IMG/VR virus record: IMGVR_UViG_3300010401_000033 | Location: 70,940-134,939 of that record | Length of the DNA: 64,000 nucleotides | Source of the DNA: a virus | Direction: 5' to 3' (one strand) | Part shown: one piece after another, positions 28,278 through 64,000 of the stretch | How the letters are laid out: each line of letters begins with the position of its first letter | Position numbering within the stretch: position 1 is the first letter of the stretch | Made by a program: the position numbers and the translations under genes | The notes under the pieces: model-generated | Told to the model about the DNA's origin: nothing | The model's input: the letters and a program-made list of their open reading frames with translations, nothing else | Database searches by the model: none

Positions 28278-30317
28278 TTACCTAATCACAACAGAGATGT
28301 TGATGGCGCTGGCGTCATCTTCGTCAAGGAAGAGGAGTTGGTTCTGCTGAGTCTCAATGATTGAGGCTTCCGGTTCGACACTGATTCTGATATCATCTGT
28401 GTCCGTAAGCGATTGCACAACTGTCAGATCGGAAATAATGAGTTCACCTTTGAAGTAGTCAATGGTTCCGATGGTGGGGTTGATATCAACCTTCTCAGAA
28501 TTGCTGTTGTAATAGAACAAACGTAGGGTGCCATACTTGGACTGGACCACAGCGGATGCTGCACCAGCCTGGCCTCCACCTCCTGAAATCGTGACCAACG
28601 CAGAGGTATATCCCGTTCCACGCTTTGTGATTGTGATGGTATCAATACGACCATTGACGATTGTGGCAACCGCTGTCGCTCCGGTTCCATCACCGGTGAC
28701 GGTCACGGTTGGAGGATCAATATAATTGTACCCAGGGTTCGTGATGGAAATAGAATCCACCCCGGTTGAGGAGTTGAATACTTCTTCCAGGTATGCCGTG
28801 CGTAACACATTTGAGGAGTCGTGCACCGTGAACGCAGAGGACTTGAGCGCACGTTGAATTGGTGCATGGCGTAATTCAGTGGCAAAACTGACCGTGTACG
28901 TTGAACGCACATTGAATGAAGGACTGATACGTTTCTCCAAACGAATTTGTGTGTCTGATCCCACGATGGCTGCAAGCGAATCATCAACAGCACGACTGAA
29001 TTTGGATGCGGTGAAGATCGCACCAAACTGATTGAAGGTCGCCGCGGCATACGCAACAATGGCAGTTCTCACGGTTGAGGCAATCTGTGGAGAAGTCAAG
29101 AGTGTGAGTTTTCCGTCCACCTCAACTGTAGTCGCAAACTTGAGGTACACATAATCTGGATCAACCAACTCTGGTGTAATAGTGAGTACGGCAATTGGAC
29201 CGAGAATCTCTGAGGCAATTCTAACCTTCTCGGCATCATTGATAATCACACCCAACTTTGGAGCAATGGACACAAAAACTTTTCCAAACACTGGTGGAAT
29301 GTTATCTTCGCCACCCCACACAAAGATACTCTGGATGTTTGGATAGAGTGCCTTGAGAAGGGATTCGTAGTCTTTCTGCGTTACGGCGCGATTCTGAGAT
29401 GTATACGCTAATGGCGCATGAACTCGGATAGAATCATCAGACTCACGTTCCGCTCCACCCGAGGCGGAGGAGACTGAGGCGATAGCGACATTTGAGAAGC
29501 CCCCAATTGATCCAGTGGCAAAAGAATTGGCTTTGTTGGCATCAGGACCCGCGGTCGACAAGTAACTGGCAATCACAATGTTACCATTTGAGAGTGCGAG
29601 GGAGATGGCATCATCACCAAAAGTCAATTGATATTTGTTGCTAGTGGAGGTGCTCAGGTAGTAGACGGCGCTGTTAGAATCGGACTCTGTGATATCATTA
29701 GAGAGAGTGAACACCTGTGAGGAGGTATTTGTACTGGATTCTTGTACTGTCACAAGAAGTGTACTAGTGTCAATATCATCATTTGGCAACTCAAACTTAG
29801 ATGTTGGATTGCTGGTCGCATCATAGGTGAAGGTGGTGACTTGAGGAGTGCCCGCCACAATTTCCAAGGATGAGAATGTGAATACACCCGCCTCCTTATA
29901 CACAGTATGCGCCCCAGTGGTAACGAAAGTGTAGTTCACACCATCAATGGCTTGGGATTGAAATTCTGTGAAACGATCCATTGTCAGGACGGCTTGGTTG
30001 TTTCCCCCAGGAGGTGTGACCACGAGGTCCACAATGGCAACTGGTGCACGACGGCTGACAGGCGTATAGTTCAAGGCTTTCGCATGGGAGAGCAGTGAGT
30101 TACGCACCTGTGCAGAGTCAATGAACAACTCGTTGGCAACCATGTTGGTGTAGTACGCATTGTAATACGTGTTGTAGGCGAGCAAGTTGATGAGGATTGA
30201 CAATGCAGAACCCTCAAAGTTATAATCCAGGAATGTGCTTTGAGAACTCAAGAAGGTTTTGAGGTTCGTCTTGATCGTCTCAAATTCTAAGTCGGTGATA
30301 ATTAGTTTCTCAGCCAT
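28278..30317 (-). CDS. gp6: baseplate wedge subunit gp6
   Basis: LEFE.IK.NLK.FL, DYNFEGSALS, QNRAVT..DY, WGGEDN.PP.FGKV. Confidence 0.93.
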   Translation of the reverse strand: MAEKLIITDLEFETIKTNLKTFLSSQSTFLDYNFEGSALSILINLLAYNTYYNAYYTNMVANELFIDSAQVRNSLLSHAKALNYTPVSRRAPVAIVDLVVTPPGGNNQAVLTMDRFTEFQSQAIDGVNYTFVTTGAHTVYKEAGVFTFSSLEIVAGTPQVTTFTYDATSNPTSKFELPNDDIDTSTLLVTVQESSTNTSSQVFTLSNDITESDSNSAVYYLSTSTSNKYQLTFGDDAISLALSNGNIVIASYLSTAGPDANKANSFATGSIGGFSNVAIASVSSASGGAERESDDSIRVHAPLAYTSQNRAVTQKDYESLLKALYPNIQSIFVWGGEDNIPPVFGKVFVSIAPKLGVIINDAEKVRIASEILGPIAVLTITPELVDPDYVYLKFATTVEVDGKLTLLTSPQIASTVRTAIVAYAAATFNQFGAIFTASKFSRAVDDSLAAIVGSDTQIRLEKRISPSFNVRSTYTVSFATELRHAPIQRALKSSAFTVHDSSNVLRTAYLEEVFNSSTGVDSISITNPGYNYIDPPTVTVTGDGTGATAVATIVNGRIDTITITKRGTGYTSALVTISGGGGQAGAASAVVQSKYGTLRLFYYNSNSEKVDINPTIGTIDYFKGELIISDLTVVQSLTDTDDIRISVEPEASIIETQQNQLLFLDEDDASAINISVVIR

Positions 30318-56859: not shown

Positions 56860-57781
56860 ACTTCAAAAGATGTAACAACAGACTATCCACTAGTGCACCG
56901 TCTACCTCTTCGGGTAACGTAGAATTCTTGGAGAGCAATTCTACTTCTTCCATGAGGGTATCAAGTTTGGGGGCCACTTCGTTTACAAAATGCAGTGCCC
57001 CACTCTTTACAGCACGGAGAAATTCTGTCTCAGGCAACGGATAGGTGAAATCCCCATCCTTAAGGATACCGCGCACTTGATACGCCGCCCTGAACGCATG
57101 GCTTATGGCTTTCCAGTCTACCCCTTCGTTCGTCTCGGCTTGTTTGGCACGGGCGCCATAATTCTCCACAAAACGCTCCACCATAGATACATAATGTCCA
57201 GTGGTTGCATTCAGGGTCATTTTCTTTCCGCACATTTCATAGAACGTTACACCCTCAGCGGTCATGAGTCCACAATGCTCACCCGTAGGGAGCGTGAGAC
57301 GAACATCATTTACCTTTGTATCTGGGTGGTTCGCTTTGAGGATATCCAATACTGCCTTGGCTTCCGCAAGTCGTGAACCCTTCACCCCATACTTTGCGGC
57401 TTGCTTCCGAGCATAGCCTACCAATGAGGAGAGATTCTTGGTGTAGAACATCCTGCGGTTAGCAACCAAACATTCCCAATGCCAGGTATAGGATAACCAG
57501 GCAGACTTGGGTGCATGGAGCATATCCAGGGCAACGGTTTCCCCCTTCTTGGCTAACTCCAAAAAGTAGTGCAGGGAATACGTTTCCTTGTCGGTGTCCT
57601 CAGAGGTATTCTTTTCGTTGGAATTCAACTTAGTGTTTTCGTTGATAGACTTTGGGAACCTTCCCAAAAGCATATCATCAAAAGAAGGCATGTACACACC
57701 CTTGTAGTCTTTGTCGGACGAGGGGCTTGACGTGCCGTAGAGGTGGGAACCGAAAACCATTTCAACTAGATTCGTTCGCAT
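56852..57781 (-). CDS. Pol-beta-superfamily nucleotidyltransferase (T4 NrdC.11-like)
   Basis: FGSHLYGT....SD.D.KG, YA.KQA.KY..KGSRL, DWKA.SHA.R. Confidence 0.85.
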   Translation of the reverse strand: MRTNLVEMVFGSHLYGTSSPSSDKDYKGVYMPSFDDMLLGRFPKSINENTKLNSNEKNTSEDTDKETYSLHYFLELAKKGETVALDMLHAPKSAWLSYTWHWECLVANRRMFYTKNLSSLVGYARKQAAKYGVKGSRLAEAKAVLDILKANHPDTKVNDVRLTLPTGEHCGLMTAEGVTFYEMCGKKMTLNATTGHYVSMVERFVENYGARAKQAETNEGVDWKAISHAFRAAYQVRGILKDGDFTYPLPETEFLRAVKSGALHFVNEVAPKLDTLMEEVELLSKNSTLPEEVDGALVDSLLLHLLKCE

Positions 57782-57790
57782 TATGATATA

Positions 57791-57839
57791 AGTATAACAG
57801 ACTTAGAGGGAGTTGTCAAGTGGGTTAAGTGGTTGATTT
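57791..57839 (-). promoter_or_regulatory. early promoter with upstream 14-mer; near-leaderless transcript
   Basis: AAATCAACCACTTA-N6-TTGACA-17-TATACT, then TATATCATA-ATG. Confidence 0.75.
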
Positions 57840-57884
57840 TATTGAGCATATGGGGACGTATCGGATTAAATACATCAAAAGAGT

Positions 57885-57892
57885 TATAAATA
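57885..57892 (+). promoter_or_regulatory. late promoter TATAAATA
   Basis: Exact consensus upstream of the plus-strand fibre cassette. Confidence 0.75.
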
Positions 57893-57924
57893 GGAGAGTT
57901 TCGTTTTGGTTTGCTGAGGATACC

Positions 57925-58122
57925 ATGTCAAATGTTACCTACCGAGTATTCCTTGAGAAATTAGGCGGAACTGATCCACTCACCTTCATCGGAAATCATG
58001 GTGATCTTTTCTATGATCCCTTTGATGGGGTCCTGAGAGTATCAAACGGTGAGACCCAAGGCGGCACAACGATTAGTGGTGCCAACGCATCCATAACAGT
58101 AGTTGACGGAGGACTCTTCTAA
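57925..58122 (+). CDS. small fibre protein (Mtd_N/hyaluronidase-N-like), ending in DGGLF
   Basis: FIG..GDLFYD...LRVSNG.T.GG; start at 57925 with GAGGA SD. Confidence 0.65.
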   Translation: MSNVTYRVFLEKLGGTDPLTFIGNHGDLFYDPFDGVLRVSNGETQGGTTISGANASITVVDGGLF

Positions 58123-58676
58123 TGCAAATTCAAATTAAACATTCAGCAAATACCGGCAATACTCCTGTCTCTCTTGCAAACGGTGAATTGGCACTTAACT
58201 TTGCCGATCAAATTCTCTATTACAAACACGCCAACGGGTCTATCATCCAATTAGCGAATGGCGCTCAATTAGGTGTAGACGATTATGCTCGCCTCCGTGC
58301 AAACGGTGCGTTTGACACTGCCAATGCAGCCTACGACAAGGCGAATGGTGCCGCGCAGTTTTCATTCTCCACAATCAATGTGGCGGGGCAATCCGATATC
58401 GTCGCGGATTCAAACAATGACACACTGACTCTTGAAGCCGGAGCGGGTATCTCCATCACCACAGATGCCCCAAACGATACCATCGTCATTTCATCCACAG
58501 CGACCGCCCCAAACATTTTCCAGACCTTTGCGGTTGCTGGACAAAACAATGTGGTTGCAGACTCCAATACGGACACTCTAACCCTAGTGGCAGGAGAAAG
58601 TATCAGCATCATCACCGACCAAGCGAATGACTCAATCACCTTCGCGGTCACAACCATAGATGGTGGTACATTCTAA
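58122..58676 (+). CDS. short fibre protein sharing modules with 4996-9681
   Basis: IKHS...P.SL.NGELA.N N-terminus, two VAGQ..ADSN.DTL modules, DGGTF end. Confidence 0.75.
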   Translation: MQIQIKHSANTGNTPVSLANGELALNFADQILYYKHANGSIIQLANGAQLGVDDYARLRANGAFDTANAAYDKANGAAQFSFSTINVAGQSDIVADSNNDTLTLEAGAGISITTDAPNDTIVISSTATAPNIFQTFAVAGQNNVVADSNTDTLTLVAGESISIITDQANDSITFAVTTIDGGTF

Positions 58677-58756
58677 CACTTCATGGTCGTCAAAGTCAAG
58701 CATTCTTCCAACACCGGGAATACTCCTGTCTCTCTTGCAAACGGTGAATTGGCACT
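58158..58756 (+). repeat. 38-bp exact direct repeat (58158-58195 and 58719-58756)
   Basis: aatactcctgtctctcttgcaaacggtgaattggcact occurs in both fibre gene starts. Confidence 0.9.
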
Positions 58757-59297
58757 CAACGCCATTGACCAATTGCTGTACTACCGCCATGCGAACGGCG
58801 CCCTAGCGATCCTAGCGAACGGCGCCTCACTCCTCACCTTTGCCACCGCACAGGTGTCCAGCAATCAGAATCAAATCCCTGCAAATACTTCCGCCTATAA
58901 AGTCACATTCAACTCAAATGATTTGTTAATTGGTGTATCTCACACAATAGGTGACTCTCGCATATTTGTTTTGTCAAACGGGTGGTACAGAATTACAGCA
59001 TCGGGTAACTATCTTAAGAATACAGGGGGCACTACATTCAGGATCGTGGATTGCTGGGTGCGAAGAAATAATGTGGATGTAACAGGCACTACAACACGAA
59101 CCCCTATTCTTAATGCAATGGTGGATATTCCAATGAACATGGAGACATTATTGAGGTTAAATTCAAATGATTATATTGAATTGGTTCAGGCGATAGATTC
59201 TACAACAGGAGGGGCTGGTTTGAGAACTGCGGTTGGATTAAGTGGAGCACCGGACATACGATCTGCGTCTTTAAGTATTACAAAGATTGCGAATTAG
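58683..59297 (+). CDS. fibre tip protein with a C1q/TNF-like C-terminal domain
   Basis: Same N-terminus as 58122; V.FN, G.Y.I, W.R.N..D, L...DYIEL. Confidence 0.65.
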   Translation: MVVKVKHSSNTGNTPVSLANGELALNAIDQLLYYRHANGALAILANGASLLTFATAQVSSNQNQIPANTSAYKVTFNSNDLLIGVSHTIGDSRIFVLSNGWYRITASGNYLKNTGGTTFRIVDCWVRRNNVDVTGTTTRTPILNAMVDIPMNMETLLRLNSNDYIELVQAIDSTTGGAGLRTAVGLSGAPDIRSASLSITKIAN

Positions 59298-59300
59298 GTT

Positions 59301-59375
59301 TGGTGCACCGCCCAGGAATTGCACCCGGTTCCCCTGGTTAAAAGCCAGGTAATCATCTACTAAATTTTGCGGTGC
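59301..59375 (-). tRNA. tRNA-Lys(UUU)
   Basis: Cloverleaf; CCTGG-CTTTTAA-CCAGG; CCA encoded; T-loop TGCAATT. Confidence 0.85.
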
Positions 59376-59380
59376 GTATA

Positions 59381-59454
59381 TGGTCGACCCTACAGGTTAC
59401 GCTCCTGTCTCTCCACAATGTCAATGTGGCATCTTGCTAATGGACGAAGGGTCG
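59381..59454 (-). tRNA. tRNA-Val(GAC)
   Basis: CCACA-TTGACAT-TGTGG; CCA; T-loop AGCGTAA. Confidence 0.8.
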
Positions 59455-59457
59455 TCG

Positions 59458-59534
59458 TGGTCTCCCTGACAGGACTCGAACCTGCATAATCGCTGGGTCG
59501 AAACCAGCGTGGCTTCCATTGCCGTCACAGGGAG
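59458..59534 (-). tRNA. tRNA-Arg(UCG)
   Basis: GCTGG-TTTCGAC-CCAGC; canonical T-loop; CCA. Confidence 0.8.
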
Positions 59535-59535
59535 G

Positions 59536-59937
59536 TTAGATCAAAAAGTCTCTCCACTTGATATCAAAAATACAATTCTCAGGAGCCCCACGAAACATCG
59601 GGGCGATCTGTGCATCCGTATATCCTGCCAAGCCACAACCTATGCGGGTGACAAAAAATACCTCATGCTCGTAGTATCGTGCGTATTCTAAAAAATCCTT
59701 CACCTGATGGTGAATATACTCCAATGCCAAAACATCAAGGTCTGCGCCCTTGGTAGGAATCGCATAGGATTGCCCGGTGAGTCCAATCCCTACTCCGTTC
59801 TTTGCTCCATAGTTCTCACGGGCACACTTCGCGGCTCCCGCTCCATGACGCCCTGCGAGGTTCGAGCCAAACACAAAGATACAGTCCTTGTACGCGGAAG
59901 AATGCCTTGGATAATCTTCATCAAAAAATAACATCAC
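59536..59937 (-). CDS. conserved phage protein, possibly macrodomain-like
   Basis: IFVFGSNLAGRHGAGAA, SYAIPTK, VTRIGCGLAGY; function tentative. Confidence 0.65.
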   Translation of the reverse strand: MMLFFDEDYPRHSSAYKDCIFVFGSNLAGRHGAGAAKCARENYGAKNGVGIGLTGQSYAIPTKGADLDVLALEYIHHQVKDFLEYARYYEHEVFFVTRIGCGLAGYTDAQIAPMFRGAPENCIFDIKWRDFLI

Positions 59938-59945
59938 ATCCTTAA

Positions 59946-60022
59946 TGGTGCCACTGGTGGGATTCTAACCCACAATTTCCCGCTTAGGAGGCGAGCGCAT
60001 TGTACAGTTATGCTACAGCGGC
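59946..60022 (-). tRNA. tRNA-Arg(CCU)
   Basis: CTCGC-CTCCTAA-GCGGG; CCA; T-loop TTAGAAT. Confidence 0.88.
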
Positions 60023-60023
60023 G

Positions 60024-60227
60024 TTAGTCCTTCATCGTGGGCTTAAACCACATGAGCGATTCAACACACTCCTCAAACATTTCGTCCGTAATCAATCCCT
60101 GCAATTGCATGATATGAAACGCATTCATCAGGAATCCCCACTTCTGCCACTCCAAGTCCTCGCGGATACCTTCATCCGTAAAGTCCTGTGGGTTTCTGAT
60201 TTCACGTTTAATCTCGGTCAATCGCAT
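60024..60227 (-). CDS. hypothetical protein
   Basis: MRLTEIKREIRNPQDF...; AAGGA SD; lies between tRNAs. Confidence 0.55.
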   Translation of the reverse strand: MRLTEIKREIRNPQDFTDEGIREDLEWQKWGFLMNAFHIMQLQGLITDEMFEECVESLMWFKPTMKD

Positions 60228-60242
60228 AATGTTCCTTTGGTA

Positions 60243-60318
60243 TGGTCCCCCTGGCAGGAGTTTAACCTGCGGTCTCCTTGTTAGAAGCAAGGCATGTTGT
60301 ACGCTACACCACAGAGGG
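60243..60318 (-). tRNA. tRNA-Arg(UCU)
   Basis: CCTTG-CTTCTAA-CAAGG; CCA; T-loop TTAAACT. Confidence 0.88.
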
Positions 60319-60327
60319 ATAACTTAG

Positions 60328-60410
60328 ATGGTAGAGGTCATCACTCCTCACTTATCCCACCCCAGCCTCATCGACCAGACTATGGGCTTCGTAGATTGTA
60401 TCCTACCATC
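60328..60410 (-). ncRNA. unknown multibranched small RNA candidate
   Basis: GATGGTAG/CTACCATC closing stem with internal hairpins. Confidence 0.45.
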
Positions 60411-60420
60411 ATAAAAACGA

Positions 60421-60478
60421 TGCACAGAAGAGGAATCGAACCTCAATATGGGGCGCCCCATAATGCCCAGTCTGTGCA
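60421..60478 (-). ncRNA. mini tRNA-like RNA lacking an anticodon loop
   Basis: GCACAGA/TCTGTGC acceptor; GAGG-TTCGATT-CCTC T-arm; TATGGG-GCGC-CCCATA arm; no D-stem and no CCA. Confidence 0.65.
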
Positions 60479-60483
60479 ACGAT

Positions 60484-60557
60484 TGGTGCTCCCACCGGGT
60501 GCTGCCCCCGGCTCTCCAGATTGAGAATCTGGCGATCTACTGATAATCTATGGGAGC
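60484..60557 (-). tRNA. tRNA-Glu(CUC)
   Basis: CCAGA-TTCTCAA-TCTGG; CCA; T-loop GGCAGCA. Confidence 0.8.
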
Positions 60558-60625
60558 GTAATGCTAGGGGCCCCACTTGAGGACCCCGTATGCTCATTTC
60601 CTACACATGGTAGGTGAGCGGTGAT

Positions 60626-60960
60626 TGGTGGAGCCGCCGGGAATTGCACCCGGGTCCAAAAACAACGTCGAAGGGGATTTTCATGCTAGACGATCTAACT
60701 GGATTGCCAACAAGGATCGTCAACCTGTTGGATATCGGAGCGAACATCCATCTAACCGTCCACGTAAAGGATGGGAACTTTACGATTTGACCTATAATGA
60801 CGTTTCCCCACATATAGGTGTCTGTGGTTCAACGGGCGGGGATTATGCCGCCATTGCAAACTCGCGTTCGACAATTCTGGTTTTCTAAGTTTTTACAGGG
60901 CCCTAGTCCCTGGCATGTCCTGTGCTTCTCTGTACGTCTCTGTCGATCCTGTGCGACCCC
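60626..60960 (-). ncRNA. ssrA: tmRNA
   Basis: 5' GGGGTCG..TCGAC and 3' CCGGGTGCAATTCCCGGCGGCTCCACCA with a G3-U Ala pair; tag ORF VEREFAMAA* at 60843-60872. Confidence 0.92.
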
Positions 60961-61056
60961 TTTCTCTGATTAAATAATTCTTCTAACTTACCTTCGCGGT
61001 CGAGTCTATCACACAACTCTGTAATTTGATTCACTAGCGCAAAGTAAGTACCCATG

Positions 61057-61284
61057 TTACCAACTATCGTAATCCGTCAAATCAATTACCGCGCCAGTAA
61101 CAGTATTCTCAACCTTAAGCACGGTGCCTATCGACGTGGGGGTAAAGTGATACGTGTACGCCCCGCCTATCGCTCCGTAGTGAGGACACTCACAACCTTC
61201 TTTGGTGGCCTGCCAAATCTTGTCCTGCTCCTCTATAAATGCGTTAATCTTTTCCTGTTCCTCGGGCGTCACATGAAACTTCAT
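61057..61284 (-). CDS. conserved hypothetical phage protein
   Basis: GAIGG.Y.Y.FTPTSIG....V, DLTDY..W. Confidence 0.65.
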   Translation of the reverse strand: MKFHVTPEEQEKINAFIEEQDKIWQATKEGCECPHYGAIGGAYTYHFTPTSIGTVLKVENTVTGAVIDLTDYDSW

Positions 61285-61616
61285 AATAAATTCCTTCTTT
61301 GCTTCCTTCGTTTATTCCCCTCTTCTAATGCCACTTTCCAAGAAGGTAGTTTTGTCAAATCCAAAACATTTTCTCTCGGAGTACCCCAGTATAAATGCTT
61401 TGGGTTGCAACAGAGGCTATTATTACAAGCGTGGCATAGGTATACTCGACCCATTCCCTTTGGAATGGTTGTTCTCAACTCATACGCCAGAAGGGCCCTG
61501 TATTCCGTGGAACATCTACCACCCAGTTCGATACAAGGTTCACTAAGGTCAAGGTGCGCTTGTCGCTCCTTTAGTTCCCTTGTGATATAGGTATAAATGT
61601 TCTCAAAAATCAACAT
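61281..61616 (-). CDS. HNH-type (His-Cys) endonuclease-like protein
   Basis: CHACNN..CCNP.HLYWGT..EN..D. Confidence 0.75.
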   Translation of the reverse strand: MLIFENIYTYITRELKERQAHLDLSEPCIELGGRCSTEYRALLAYELRTTIPKGMGRVYLCHACNNSLCCNPKHLYWGTPRENVLDLTKLPSWKVALEEGNKRRKQRRNLL

Positions 61617-61624
61617 AATATGAG

Positions 61625-61715
61625 TGGCGGAGAGAAGAGGACTTGCACCCCAACGCTTTTTACACGTCGATCTGCTTTCAAAACAGTCCCAATACGCTTG
61701 CCTGGTTTTCTCTCC
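61625..61715 (-). tRNA. tRNA-Ser(UGA)
   Basis: Loop TTTGAAA; long variable arm; G73; CCA. Confidence 0.85.
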
Positions 61716-61717
61716 AT

Positions 61718-61807
61718 TTATTGCATTTTCAGAATTTCAGTGAGAGCCAACACCAATCCCATGAGCACCGCGGCTCCAAACCACACTAACACTTCTTTCC
61801 AACTCAT
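61718..61807 (-). CDS. small membrane peptide, 29 aa
   Basis: MSWKEVLVWFGAAVLMGLVLALTEILKMQ; AAGGA SD. Confidence 0.5.
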   Translation of the reverse strand: MSWKEVLVWFGAAVLMGLVLALTEILKMQ

Positions 61808-61815
61808 TATATCCT

Positions 61816-61903
61816 TGGCGGAAGAGACAGGATTTGAACCTGCGTGGCTGTTACACCGCATCGCTTTCCAAGCGAGCACCATTAGCCTCTCGGTCACTCT
61901 TCC
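61816..61903 (-). tRNA. tRNA-Ser(GGA)
   Basis: Loop TTGGAAA; long variable arm; CCA. Confidence 0.92.
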
Positions 61904-62311
61904 TTAAAATCGTTTCTGATACACTCGCCAAATCTTTTGTGCCACATCCAAATTAAAATGGGGCTTCTTATCTCTTACTTGCTTTTCATCTTCATCTGTC
62001 AACAGATATCGTGCCAATCCGACGGCGATGCCTGCGGATCGTGACATGCCTGCTTCACAGTGAATCACAATTCTATCAGAATCTAACAACCACTTCTCAA
62101 CGAAGTCTGCCACTTCAACCGCTTGGGCGTCTGAGAACCCCTGTTCATGCACTTCGTACCGCATCGTGTCTTTGAAGTGAAGATTCAGCCGTGCCAAACA
62201 ATCAACAGACTGGCGCGGGTGCTCTCTTCCAGGTGATACAATAGAAATCACGATATCACGGTTCGTGATGGGCTCAACACGAAATTCCTGCTCTGATAAC
62301 ACTCGAATCAT
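61904..62311 (-). CDS. PTP/dual-specificity phosphatase-like protein
   Basis: IHCEAGMSRS (CX5R). Confidence 0.8.
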   Translation of the reverse strand: MIRVLSEQEFRVEPITNRDIVISIVSPGREHPRQSVDCLARLNLHFKDTMRYEVHEQGFSDAQAVEVADFVEKWLLDSDRIVIHCEAGMSRSAGIAVGLARYLLTDEDEKQVRDKKPHFNLDVAQKIWRVYQKRF

Positions 62312-62323
62312 AATGTATCCTGC

Positions 62324-62411
62324 TGGCGGAAGGCTGAGGTCTTGATCCCCACGGTGTTACCCGCGATTCGCTTTCGAGGCGATCCCGACGCGCCCGTTCG
62401 GTTAACCTTCC
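62324..62411 (-). tRNA. tRNA-Ser(CGA)
   Basis: Loop CTCGAAA; long variable arm; CCA. Confidence 0.85.
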
Positions 62412-62418
62412 AAATACA

Positions 62419-62484
62419 GACCGCGTAGCAAGGTTCCTCTGGTCCCCTTTGCCGCATTCTCCTGTTCGGCGTGAACCCGCGGTC
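62419..62484 (-). ncRNA. unknown small structured RNA candidate
   Basis: Nested GACCGCG/CGCGGTC, GGTTC/GAACC and GCCG/CGGC stems. Confidence 0.5.
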
Positions 62485-62489
62485 ATTTA

Positions 62490-62576
62490 TGGCGGAAGAG
62501 AGAGGACTCGAACCCCACGGTGTTACCCGCGATCCGATTAGCAATCGGTCCAGTTACCCTGCACTGGTTCTCTTCC
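62490..62576 (-). tRNA. tRNA-Ser(GCU)
   Basis: Loop TTGCTAA; long variable arm; CCA. Confidence 0.9.
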
Positions 62577-62579
62577 AAG

Positions 62580-62656
62580 TGGTCTCCTCGGGTGGACTCG
62601 AACCACCGATCTCCACCTTCGCAGGGTGGCGTCTTATCCATCTGGACTACGAGGAG
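62580..62656 (-). tRNA. tRNA-Arg(GCG)
   Basis: CCACC-CTGCGAA-GGTGG; A20; CCA. Confidence 0.9.
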
Positions 62657-62668
62657 GTATGTGCTGAC

Positions 62669-62715
62669 AAGAGTAGCAATTATTTACCGGTGTCGTTATC
62701 ACACCCGCTACTCTT
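62669..62715 (-). ncRNA. small hairpin RNA candidate
   Basis: AAGAGTAGC/GCTACTCTT stem enclosing a GGTGT/ACACC hairpin. Confidence 0.45.
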
Positions 62716-62718
62716 ATA

Positions 62719-62793
62719 TGGTGCACCGCGTAGGAATCAAACCTACTTGATCCTGCTTGTAAAACAGGCGCCTATTCAATCGGCCTGCGGTGC
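62719..62793 (-). tRNA. tRNA-Val(UAC)
   Basis: CCTGT-TTTACAA-GCAGG; CCA; T-loop TTTGATT. Confidence 0.85.
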
Positions 62794-62798
62794 GTATA

Positions 62799-62874
62799 TG
62801 GAGCCCCCTGTCAGAATTGCACTGACCATCTCGACCTTACCAAGGTCTTGCCCCGCTCACTGGGCCTAGAGGGC
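62799..62874 (-). tRNA. tRNA-Thr(GGU)
   Basis: Loop TTGGTAA; CCA; T-loop TGCAATT. Confidence 0.85.
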
Positions 62875-62880
62875 GAATTT

Positions 62881-62950
62881 GTGATAAGTTGCTAAGTTAG
62901 ATTACTTTTGCCCGTTAGGGATTAGAGTTGCCAAAATAACAACTTATCAT
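62881..62950 (-). ncRNA. small structured RNA candidate
   Basis: 13-bp TGATAAGTTGTTA/TAGCAACTTATCA stem with inner TTTTG/CAAAA and CCC-TAAC-GGG. Confidence 0.45.
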
Positions 62951-62958
62951 ATTTAATA

Positions 62959-63236
62959 GGACAAACGATAAGCGGCGTTCTGTCGTGAACTAACATTTAT
63001 CTAGGAGTGTAATTACTCACACCCTCCAGCCTCCTACCCGCCAGATCGTATGCGAACAGCACACTGGCTTATTTGGAGTTGCACCGGATAGAGATTGCTG
63101 GTTTCACTTCCCCCTTGCGGGTTCTTCCTCACTGTGGCTCTAATCCTCGGATTACTCCGGGTGGTCGTTAGCCACTATCCTGTTCTCTGGTGCGCCGACT
63201 TTCCTCTGGCTTGCGCCAGCGTTAGTTTGTTTCTCC
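62959..63236 (-). ncRNA. rnpB: RNase P RNA (compact bacterial type-A-like)
   Basis: GAGGAAAGTCGGCG ... ACAGAACGCCGCTTA (P4); P2 CTAACG/TGTTAG; P3 with GCAA loop; P6 GAACAG/CTGTTC; L15 GGU; P18 with GTAA loop. Confidence 0.92.
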
Positions 63237-63242
63237 TATATG

Positions 63243-63320
63243 TGGTGCCGAAGGTGGGACTCGAACCCACAAGAAACTGGTTTTGAATCAGTTATGTCTG
63301 CCAATTGCAATCACTTCGGC
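63243..63320 (-). tRNA. tRNA-Leu(CAA), short variable loop
   Basis: Loop TTCAAAA; D-loop AATTGGCAGA; A73; CCA. Confidence 0.85.
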
Positions 63321-63562
63321 GGTAAAACTGTTGTGACATACTCACAACCTAATCCGTAGACAACGGTGATAATTCGTCCTCGTAATTCAACTTGAACAAT
63401 CTTTTGTTTCTTCTCCCCTAATGCTTCGAGGAGCCCATTACCTAATTTGGCACATCTACAGAGGTGCTCATAATCTGCCTTTGAGAGAACCATGCTGTAG
63501 CGTTCCTGCAAACGCTGCTTCGTGTGCTCAAATGAGTAGGCTCTGTCTTTCTTCGTTTTCAT
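63311..63562 (-). CDS. hypothetical protein; stop codon lies inside tRNA-Leu(CAA)
   Basis: MKTKKDRAYSFEH..RL.ERY....TTVLPPK*. Confidence 0.6.
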   Translation of the reverse strand: MKTKKDRAYSFEHTKQRLQERYSMVLSKADYEHLCRCAKLGNGLLEALGEKKQKIVQVELRGRIITVVYGLGCEYVTTVLPPK

Positions 63563-63563
63563 A

Positions 63564-63641
63564 TGGTGCCAGAGAAGGGACTCGAACCCCCAGGCGCTTC
63601 GTTTTAAGTGAAGCAGGTCTGCCAATTGCACTCACTCTGGC
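63564..63641 (-). tRNA. tRNA-Leu(UAA), short variable loop
   Basis: Loop CTTAAAA; D-loop AATTGGCAGA; CCA. Confidence 0.85.
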
Positions 63642-63645
63642 GTCA

Positions 63646-63720
63646 TGGAGCCCTTTACTGAACTTGCATCAGCCTATCCTGCTTACGAAACAGGCGCCTC
63701 GCTATCTAGGCTTAAAGGGC
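63646..63720 (-). tRNA. tRNA-Thr(CGU)
   Basis: CCTGT-TTCGTAA-GCAGG; CCA; T-loop TGCAAGT. Confidence 0.85.
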
Positions 63721-63724
63721 ATTA

Positions 63725-63802
63725 TGGTCAGGGAGGTGGGATTTGAACCCACAATCACTCGCTTCCGAAGCGAGTAGAGTAACCAGATTCTCCTACTCCC
63801 TG
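63725..63802 (-). tRNA. tRNA-Pro(CGG)
   Basis: CTCGC-TTCGGAA-GCGAG; C1-G72; CCA. Confidence 0.9.
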
Positions 63803-63813
63803 TTATTCTCGGT

Positions 63814-63893
63814 TCCCCCTCCTGTTACTAGCGGATGCAAGTTTCCTTGCCATGCAAACCTCCGCGCGGTCGGCACTCCTTACAGGAAGGGGA
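63814..63893 (-). ncRNA. unknown small structured RNA candidate
   Basis: TCCCCTTCCTGT/ACAGGAGGGGGA stem; GCGGA/TCCGC; GCAAG-GAAA-CTTGC GNRA hairpin. Confidence 0.55.
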
Positions 63894-63895
63894 TA

Positions 63896-63969
63896 TGGAG
63901 CGAGCACCGGATTCTGCCACCGGGACTGCGGGTTGGAAGCCCGCGGTTTTTCTTGTAAACTATGCTCGC
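63896..63969 (-). tRNA. tRNA-Gly(UCC)
   Basis: GCGGG-CTTCCAA-CCCGC; U73; CCA; T-loop GGCAGAA. Confidence 0.82.
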
Positions 63970-63976
63970 GTATGTA

Positions 63977-64000
63977 TGGAGCGGGTGACGGGTAACGCTC
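63977..64000 (-). tRNA. 3' part of a tRNA, probably Gly, truncated by the window edge
   Basis: ...AGCGTTACCCGTCACCCGCTCCA; Gly-type acceptor end. Confidence 0.6.

Follow-up and report, generated by a model that had tools for sequence, protein, structure and literature searches.

Does a large phage encode its own RNase P RNA, and what would such a ribozyme do among the tRNA genes of a virus? To our knowledge, RNase P RNA is regarded as a universal and strictly cellular (plus organellar) ribozyme. The question is raised by a 64,000-nt stretch of DNA (the window), the final 64 kb of a 134,939-bp IMG/VR virus record, in which a sequence-only reading had proposed a compact, phage-borne RNase P RNA within a tRNA cluster. 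That identification is borne out: the RNA is a clear class-A RNase P RNA homologue in a viral genome, although it lacks the P13/P14 helices. Our preferred account, to which we assign a probability of about three in four, is that this RNA serves as an accessory booster of tRNA maturation together with the RnpA protein of the host.

Genomic context and identification of the gene

The virus record, from an uncultured soil phage, is linear and about 80% complete (CheckV). Its predicted proteins indicate a T4-like phage contig. They include T4-type baseplate wedge proteins (phrog_219, E 4.7e-153), and other PHROG matches are to a tail protein, a tape-measure-like protein, RtcB and DNA ligase. By gp6, the nearest cultured phages are Pelagibacter phage HTVC008M (42% at the amino acid level) and the Melnitz phages. 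The features of the window around the gene are:

59305-64000, minus strand: tRNA/tmRNA/RNase P array on a single strand, ending at the contig end (cmscan and ARAGORN)
63243-63320, minus strand: tRNA-Leu(CAA), its CCA encoded; the RNase P RNA begins 4 nt after it (ARAGORN, Rfam)
62953-63238, minus strand: RNase P RNA gene, class-A-derived, without P13/P14 and P19 (RF00010 and covariation in six phages)
62875-62952, minus strand: 78-nt spacer with a hairpin closed by 13 bp, separating the RNase P RNA from the tRNA that follows
62799-62874, minus strand: tRNA next downstream of the spacer, its T-loop of the G55 type (UGCAAUU) and its CCA encoded (RF00005, 41.3 bits)
60626-60960, minus strand: tmRNA with T-loop UGCAAUU (RF00023, 78.6 bits)

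A cmscan search of the whole window against Rfam 15 returned a single RF00010 (RNaseP_bact_a) match, 286 nt at 62953-63238 on the minus strand; RNA numbering used below takes 63238 as position 1. The score of 191.5 bits (gathering threshold 100; E 2.1e-60) and the coverage of model positions 1-367 of 367, untruncated, were reproduced in a second cmscan. Thus the Infernal search that the sequence-only reading had suggested as a check gives a match to the full model, far above gathering. The interval given in that reading, 62959-63236 with no strand, lies inside the match and stops 2-6 nt short at its ends. RF00011 (bacterial RNase P class B) has no matches at E <= 1 in G000 or in the related phage genome G050. 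It is almost certain that this is a genuine, conserved phage RNase P RNA gene.

The gene is about 760 bp from the end of the contig, beyond which lie the upstream portion of the array and the promoter. A CCA end is encoded by all 16 tRNAs of the window (59305-63969, minus strand) and by 84 of 88 tRNAs in four relatives. A scan for sigma-70 promoters found seven sites where 5.8 were expected, the level of the shuffle background, and a terminator scan of the array was likewise at shuffle background. The 78-nt spacer folds well (MFE -21.8 kcal/mol, z -5.3; none of 200 shuffles fold equally well), but its hairpin shows no sequence conservation in relatives, and we rejected it as a conserved element 3' of the gene.

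Two small open reading frames were identified in this region. One, of 135 aa (61904-62311, minus strand), lies inside the tRNA array and matches phrog_5614 (E 1e-15); its similarity to dual-specificity phosphatases (PF00782, E 2e-6) is weak and below the cut-off. This frame is a strain insertion/deletion: contigs from X2 and X24 run directly from 61903/61906 to 62323/62324, leaving out 416-420 nt. The other, P0001, of 83 aa (63311-63562, minus strand), starts 1 nt past the CCA of a tRNA and has no Pfam or PHROG matches. Homologues of P0001 occupy the equivalent place in the relatives G053 and G050; the arrays fetched for G051 and G052 have none. A role for P0001 as a dedicated RNase P cofactor was rejected, given its occurrence in G050, which has no RNase P RNA, and its absence from the fetched G051 and G052 arrays.

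A class-A fold with a reduced S-domain

The conserved regions and core helices had been described as recognisable, and every structural statement made in that description is correct on the sequence and the cmscan alignment. The main elements are:

63193-63205, minus strand: CR-I and the 5' strand of P4, AGGAAAGUCGGCG (RNA 34-46; the bulged U is position 41)
63182-63185 with 63054-63057, minus strand: P6 pseudoknot, GAAC with GUUC (read from the sequence)
63091-63145, minus strand: reduced S-domain core, comprising P10, P11, J11/12 (CR-II), P12 and J12/13 (CR-III), without P13/P14
63031-63078, minus strand: P15-P16-P17, with the L15 GGU at 63036-63038 (RNA 201-203; sequence, cmscan and covariation)
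63005-63024, minus strand: P18 hairpin (RNA 215-234), an 8-bp helix with a GUAA (GNRA) loop
62969-62983, minus strand: CR-V and the 3' strand of P4, ACAGAACGCCGCUUA (RNA 256-270; sequence, cmscan and covariation)

P1 is formed by pairing of RNA 1-11 with 271-282, P2 by 12-18 with 245-251, and P3 by 20-24 with 29-33 around a GCAA loop; P5 and P7 to P11 are present in the cmscan alignment. The segments GAGGAAAGUC, ACAG..., GUGAAA, CCUAGAUAAAUG and ACAGAAC.C.GCUUA match the upper-case consensus positions, so CR-I to CR-V are intact. In P4, 5'-AAG-U-CGGCG (RNA 38-46) pairs with 5'-CGCCG-CUU (RNA 262-269) and the bulged U is retained. The Rfam consensus here is CCGGG/CCCGG, from which two pairs differ by a swap; these are the compensatory changes (GUCGGCG/CGCCGC) that had been noticed earlier, and pairing is kept. 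The P6 pseudoknot joins RNA 54-57 to RNA 182-185, the latter inside the P17 loop.

The reduction is concentrated in a few places. P12 is a stub, CCC-GCAA-GGG, at 63112-63121 (RNA 118-127), as proposed before the alignment was made. The absence of P13/P14 and P19, which had also been suggested, is evident in the cmscan alignment: in place of the 43 P13/P14 consensus positions there are 0 nt, and twelve consensus positions are deleted in the P19 region, between P2 and CR-V. The gap between P10 and P11 is just 3 nt, with no P10.1-like insert. According to the text available from PMC1874661, P13/P14 are among the elements with which the S-domain of class A recognises pre-tRNA. Without them, substrates could be bound less well, or the RNA could depend on some cofactor.

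Pairing is maintained across related phages

We compared the RNA with its homologues in related phages (six clade sequences, 70-80% identical to the window RNA), with P4 and P6 entered in the structure as pseudoknots and P12 excluded because of its unreliable alignment. Standard pairs occupy 97.4% of 496 cells, and changes on both sides are present in 46 of 83 pairs, values reached by none of 500 column shuffles. When the 3' partners are slid by 1-3 columns, 34-40% of cells are paired and only 4-9 pairs are double-changed. Among individual helices, P4 has double changes in four of its eight pairs with 100% of cells paired, and five of the eight pairs of P18 are double-changed. In P6 one of four pairs is double-changed, GAAC/GUUC becoming GAGC/GCUC in three of the six sequences.

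CR-I to CR-V are mostly invariant in this phage clade. CR-I itself, normally fixed as GAGGAAAGUC, is GAGGAACUUC or GAGGAAGUUC in L218, L219 and L220 (from the relatives G056, G052 and G054). There AAAGUC becomes AACUUC or AAGUUC, and the 3' strand of P4 compensates, with GCUUA becoming GGGUA or GGCUA. Since these CR-I changes are matched on the other strand, the base of P4 covaries in the clade. The sequence comparison thus indicates that the RNA is selectively maintained. It is a derivative of the bacterial class-A ribozyme, minus P13/P14 and P19.

Relatives with and without the gene

Relatives were found through the gp6 homologue of the window (28278-30317), which led to 79 related viral loci, and 26 records were searched with RF00010. 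Five contain a match (177-208 bits, 284-330 nt). Two of these carriers, G051 and G052, have direct terminal repeats, and three, including G053, are rated 100% complete; the gene is present in three of the four records that are at least 90% complete. In G051, G052 and G053, whose arrays were fetched, it has tRNA-Leu(CAA) on one side and tRNA-Arg(GCG) on the other, the arrangement of the window, and in the fragments G054 and G056 it lies among tRNAs of the same strand. P13/P14 are missing in all five relatives (43 positions to 0 nt in G051 and G056, with equivalent collapsed blocks in the others). P12 ranges in these relatives from a 3-bp stub up to a long hairpin.

G050 is a complete 178.6-kb terminal-repeat relative with the same array order and without RNase P RNA. 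Neither RF00010 nor RF00011 matches anywhere in this genome, and there is no RNase P among all Rfam families in its array, where two tRNAs and tRNA-Arg(GCG) come after tRNA-Leu(CAA) within about 180 nt. Because a complete close relative lacks it, we conclude that the gene is accessory and not essential.

The location of the gene about 760 bp from a contig end could suggest that host rnpB was mis-joined to phage DNA, or that the host flank of a prophage was included in the record. Some IMG/VR records do carry host-like rnpB without tRNA arrays, three provirus records among them (368-369 nt, 266-274 bits). However, an assembly artefact is ruled out by the five relatives that hold the gene inside their arrays, two of them terminal-repeat genomes, and by the compensated pairing across six sequences. 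A Logan contig of 4,553 nt from run X1, the likely source, covers 58719-63271 with zero differences, and of the 30 bins of 57000-64000, 28 are independently covered by X2, a soil run from a second study, among them both gene bins and the flanks; run X3 yields fragments only (12 of 30 bins). Also against host origin of this DNA, the G+C content of the gene is 0.51 (0.46-0.51 for the window), and the RNA falls below the length range (325-571 nt) of the 46 RNase P RNAs identified in 45 of 50 arbitrary bacterial genomes. The CR-I/P4 18-mer of the window has 106 exact matches in 185,579 species genomes, none of them in an RNase P RNA (motif test, nhmmer). We consider an artefact extremely improbable. 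A decaying copy is likewise ruled out, given the five relatives with the gene at the matching array place and the 46 of 83 compensated pairs.

These phages provide a testable contrast: sister genomes with and without the gene, their tRNA arrays otherwise matching. G050, set against the window and G051, G052 and G053, is a natural knockout for the value of a virus-borne ribozyme.

Protein partner and predicted function

No rnpA (PF00825) match was obtained at E <= 1 in the entire 134,939-bp record or in four complete relatives; a control search with PF00825 was positive in 10 of 14 genomes. The absence of rnpA first noted for the window therefore extends to the whole record and to the four relatives, which makes the suggested use of a host protein plausible. 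Bacterial RnpA proteins are exchangeable across species, according to the text available from PMC4919922. Since the phage and its four complete relatives encode no RnpA, the host protein is the likeliest partner, and we consider it moderately probable that the RNA uses it.

The RNA is probably catalytically active, as judged from the core that its sequence retains: CR-I to CR-V, P4 with the bulged U, and P6. The L15 GGU is also kept. In the part of PMC4919922 available, pairing of this GGU with RCCA is linked with genomically encoded CCA, and here the GGU matches the 3' CCA encoded by all 16 window tRNAs.

We propose the following sequence of events. Because the gene is on the strand of the array, the RNase P RNA is probably co-transcribed with the tRNAs and tmRNA, and may be released by the same processing as the tRNAs. 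It would then assemble with host RnpA and cut the 5' leaders off the polycistronic pre-tRNAs and pre-tmRNA of the phage. The effect would be to add or secure RNase P capacity while dozens of phage tRNAs are expressed, and the gene would act as a dispensable, accessory booster. In metatranscriptome X24 (about 5% of words present), short tRNA-like pieces were identified and most of the gene has no coverage.

A different role would be that of a decoy or regulator without catalysis, a mimic that sequesters host RnpA or competes for pre-tRNAs and so favours phage transcripts. The lack of rnpA in the phage and the reduced S-domain would fit this, as would the precedent of camelpox virus: its RNase P-like RNA, the sole earlier viral case found, does not cleave pre-tRNA in vitro (PMC3001073, in the portion available). 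However, the elements that are conserved and covary are catalytic ones (P4 with its bulged U, CR-I, CR-IV, CR-V, P6 and the L15 GGU), and a decoy has no need of a match between GGU and the CCA of the phage tRNAs. We therefore judge a decoy very unlikely and prefer the booster that works with host RnpA.

tRNAs with unusual T-loops

Non-canonical T-loops are real in this array. Eight of the 16 window tRNAs lack TTC at positions 54-56, and the loops of these eight are UGCAAUU, UGCAAGU, GGCAGNA, UUAGAAU, UUAAACU and UUUGAUU. It had been suggested that the RNase P RNA is a processing ribozyme co-adapted to tRNAs with a rewired elbow. On this view its S-domain would have evolved for tRNAs with G55, A56 or U56 T-loops, which host RNase P would process poorly. 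The tmRNA, with its UGCAAUU loop, and an S-domain altered by the loss of P13/P14 are in keeping with such a specialist.

The distribution of these loops speaks against it. The highest share of G55-type loops occurs in G050, which has no RNase P RNA (10/22), and the carriers have fewer (G053, 7/21; G052, 5/24; G051, 3/21). Among tRNAs detected by ARAGORN, which favours canonical tRNAs and under-detects odd ones and so weakens this comparison, G55-type loops are absent from 12 of 13 unrelated RNase P-bearing phage arrays. The exception, L133 (3/9), also has an RNA without P13/P14, in line with the specialist idea, but five of the six P13/P14-less RNAs (L126, L128, L130, L131 and L135) are in arrays with no detected G55-type loop. 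In addition, J11/12 and J12/13 stay near the bacterial consensus and are almost unchanging within the clade. Co-adaptation is thus unlikely, and the attractive idea of a ribozyme that serves unusual tRNA elbows was removed from our account as unsupported. The general booster of tRNA maturation remains the preferred reading.

RNase P RNAs in other viral records

RNase P RNA had been described as rarely found in viruses. This holds for the literature searched: neither full-text searches nor the available parts of a 2024 review on RNase P, the 2020 paper on huge phages and a paper on rnpB annotation mention an RNase P RNA encoded by a phage, although such genes could be listed in supplements. None is present in the text available from PMC7162821, PMC11143913, PMC3001073, PMC7191817, PMC6582537, PMC4919922 and PMC1874661, and the camelpox RNA (PMC3001073) is the only viral RNase P-like RNA in the portions of this literature that were available.

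The description does not hold for IMG/VR. A scan with a degenerate CR-I motif matched at least 114 stretches; a 19-mer ending in A gave no matches in the viral scan because relatives have U there. From the matches listed, 49 records were searched with RF00010, which scored above the cut-off in 22. Sixteen of these 22 (among the matches listed) have at least four same-strand tRNAs within 1.5 kb; most of the others are proviruses or short contigs in which the gene is host-like and measures 340-369 nt. Separately, an nhmmer profile detected sequence resembling RNase P RNA at 49 of the 114 loci among the matches listed. Copies embedded in arrays occur at no fewer than 25 viral loci (25/114 among the matches listed), each with at least three tRNAs within 2 kb, invariably on the same strand. 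As far as the searched literature goes, these other phage-array RNase P RNAs are unpublished.

The array-embedded RNAs vary in structure. Six of ten examined lack P13/P14 (L126, L128, L130, L131, L133 and L135), and in L135 P18 is missing as well; L116, L122 and L124 are full-size and keep P13/P14. In the records among the matches listed, identity of other phage-array RNase P RNAs to the window RNA is at most 59%. A far more reduced form than that of the window was identified within a tRNA array of a 190.7-kb viral record (L137 in G040, 1501-1707): this RNase P RNA of 207 nt (118.5 bits) has neither P12-P14 nor P15-P17.

In an IQ-TREE phylogeny of 55 sequences, 30 of them bacterial, the window clade has support of 100/100. 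It groups with seven other viral-contig RNAs (98/93), separate from all 30 bacterial rows, although the base composition of the window clade deviates from the alignment, so the deep grouping should be taken as a lead rather than a result. Five of the seven were examined (L126, L128, L130, L133 and L135) and all five lack P13/P14; the other two are L132 and L134. The phage RNA L118 nests within Actinomycetota, and there has thus been more than one acquisition. No donor lineage can be named from a tree with 30 bacterial sequences, and the 106 matches to the CR-I/P4 18-mer, with no RNase P RNA among them, were rejected as pointers to a donor and are chance matches.

Searches of GenBank with blastn gave few matches. 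The window gene has none in 50,697 phage records. L118 matches 11 records only: unannotated faecal 'Bacteriophage sp.' contigs, two Acinetobacter phage MD-2021a contigs and one Salmonella WGS record. Among these L118 matches there is no annotated RNase P RNA in a cultured phage. An alphaproteobacterial MAG reached via L284 (G113) has two full-length RF00010 matches on different contigs (267.8 and 251.2 bits), possibly a second copy or bin contamination.

The array-embedded RNAs without P13/P14 may form a distinct structural class carried by phages, long maintained and passed between large phages that are unrelated; its members would act as portable boosters of tRNA maturation, used with host RnpA or a phage cofactor. 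We offer this broader interpretation tentatively, as somewhat less likely to be right than wrong.

Comparison with known systems

The closest known relative is the bacterial class-A RNase P RNA (rnpB/M1, RF00010). The window RNA shares with it CR-I to CR-V, P1-P12, P15-P18, the P4/P6 pseudoknots, the L15 GGU and the GNRA L18, and matches its model over the full length above the cut-off. Unlike the bacterial RNA, it is encoded by a phage within a tRNA array, has no P13/P14, P19 or accompanying rnpA, is 286 nt long (325-571 nt in 46 bacterial examples), and has a P4 sequence unseen in cellular RNase P RNAs by exact-motif scan. It is a naturally minimised ribozyme, with a bacterial C-domain and an S-domain lacking P13/P14, and thus a probe of the contribution of those helices.

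Archaeal type-A RNase P RNA, in which P18 is also absent and which has several protein partners, resembles the phage RNA in lacking P13/P14. Unlike the archaeal form, the phage RNA has P18 and the bacterial L15 GGU, and scores best with the bacterial model. The absence of P13/P14 in archaeal type-A RNA is taken from the available text of PMC4919922.

The other RNase P RNAs of phage arrays in IMG/VR are similar in their setting, in large phages with same-strand tRNA arrays, and six of the ten examined are without P13/P14. They differ from the window RNA in that some keep P13/P14, L135 has no P18 and L137 is only 207 nt long.

The camelpox virus RNA is also virus-encoded and has been compared to RNase P RNA (PMC3001073, in the portion available). 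Its similarity is a loose structural one only, whereas the phage RNA is homologous to RNase P RNA in full, with a high score, and its catalytic core is conserved. HDV-like theta ribozymes adjoin tRNAs in gut phages, and so are phage-encoded ribozymes tied to phage tRNA genes (PMC10879173, in the text available), but they have an unrelated fold and cleave themselves in cis rather than acting in trans as a 5' maturase. The known viral translation set, which comprises tRNAs, tmRNA and RtcB, is now extended to a catalytic RNA of the kind that matures tRNAs.
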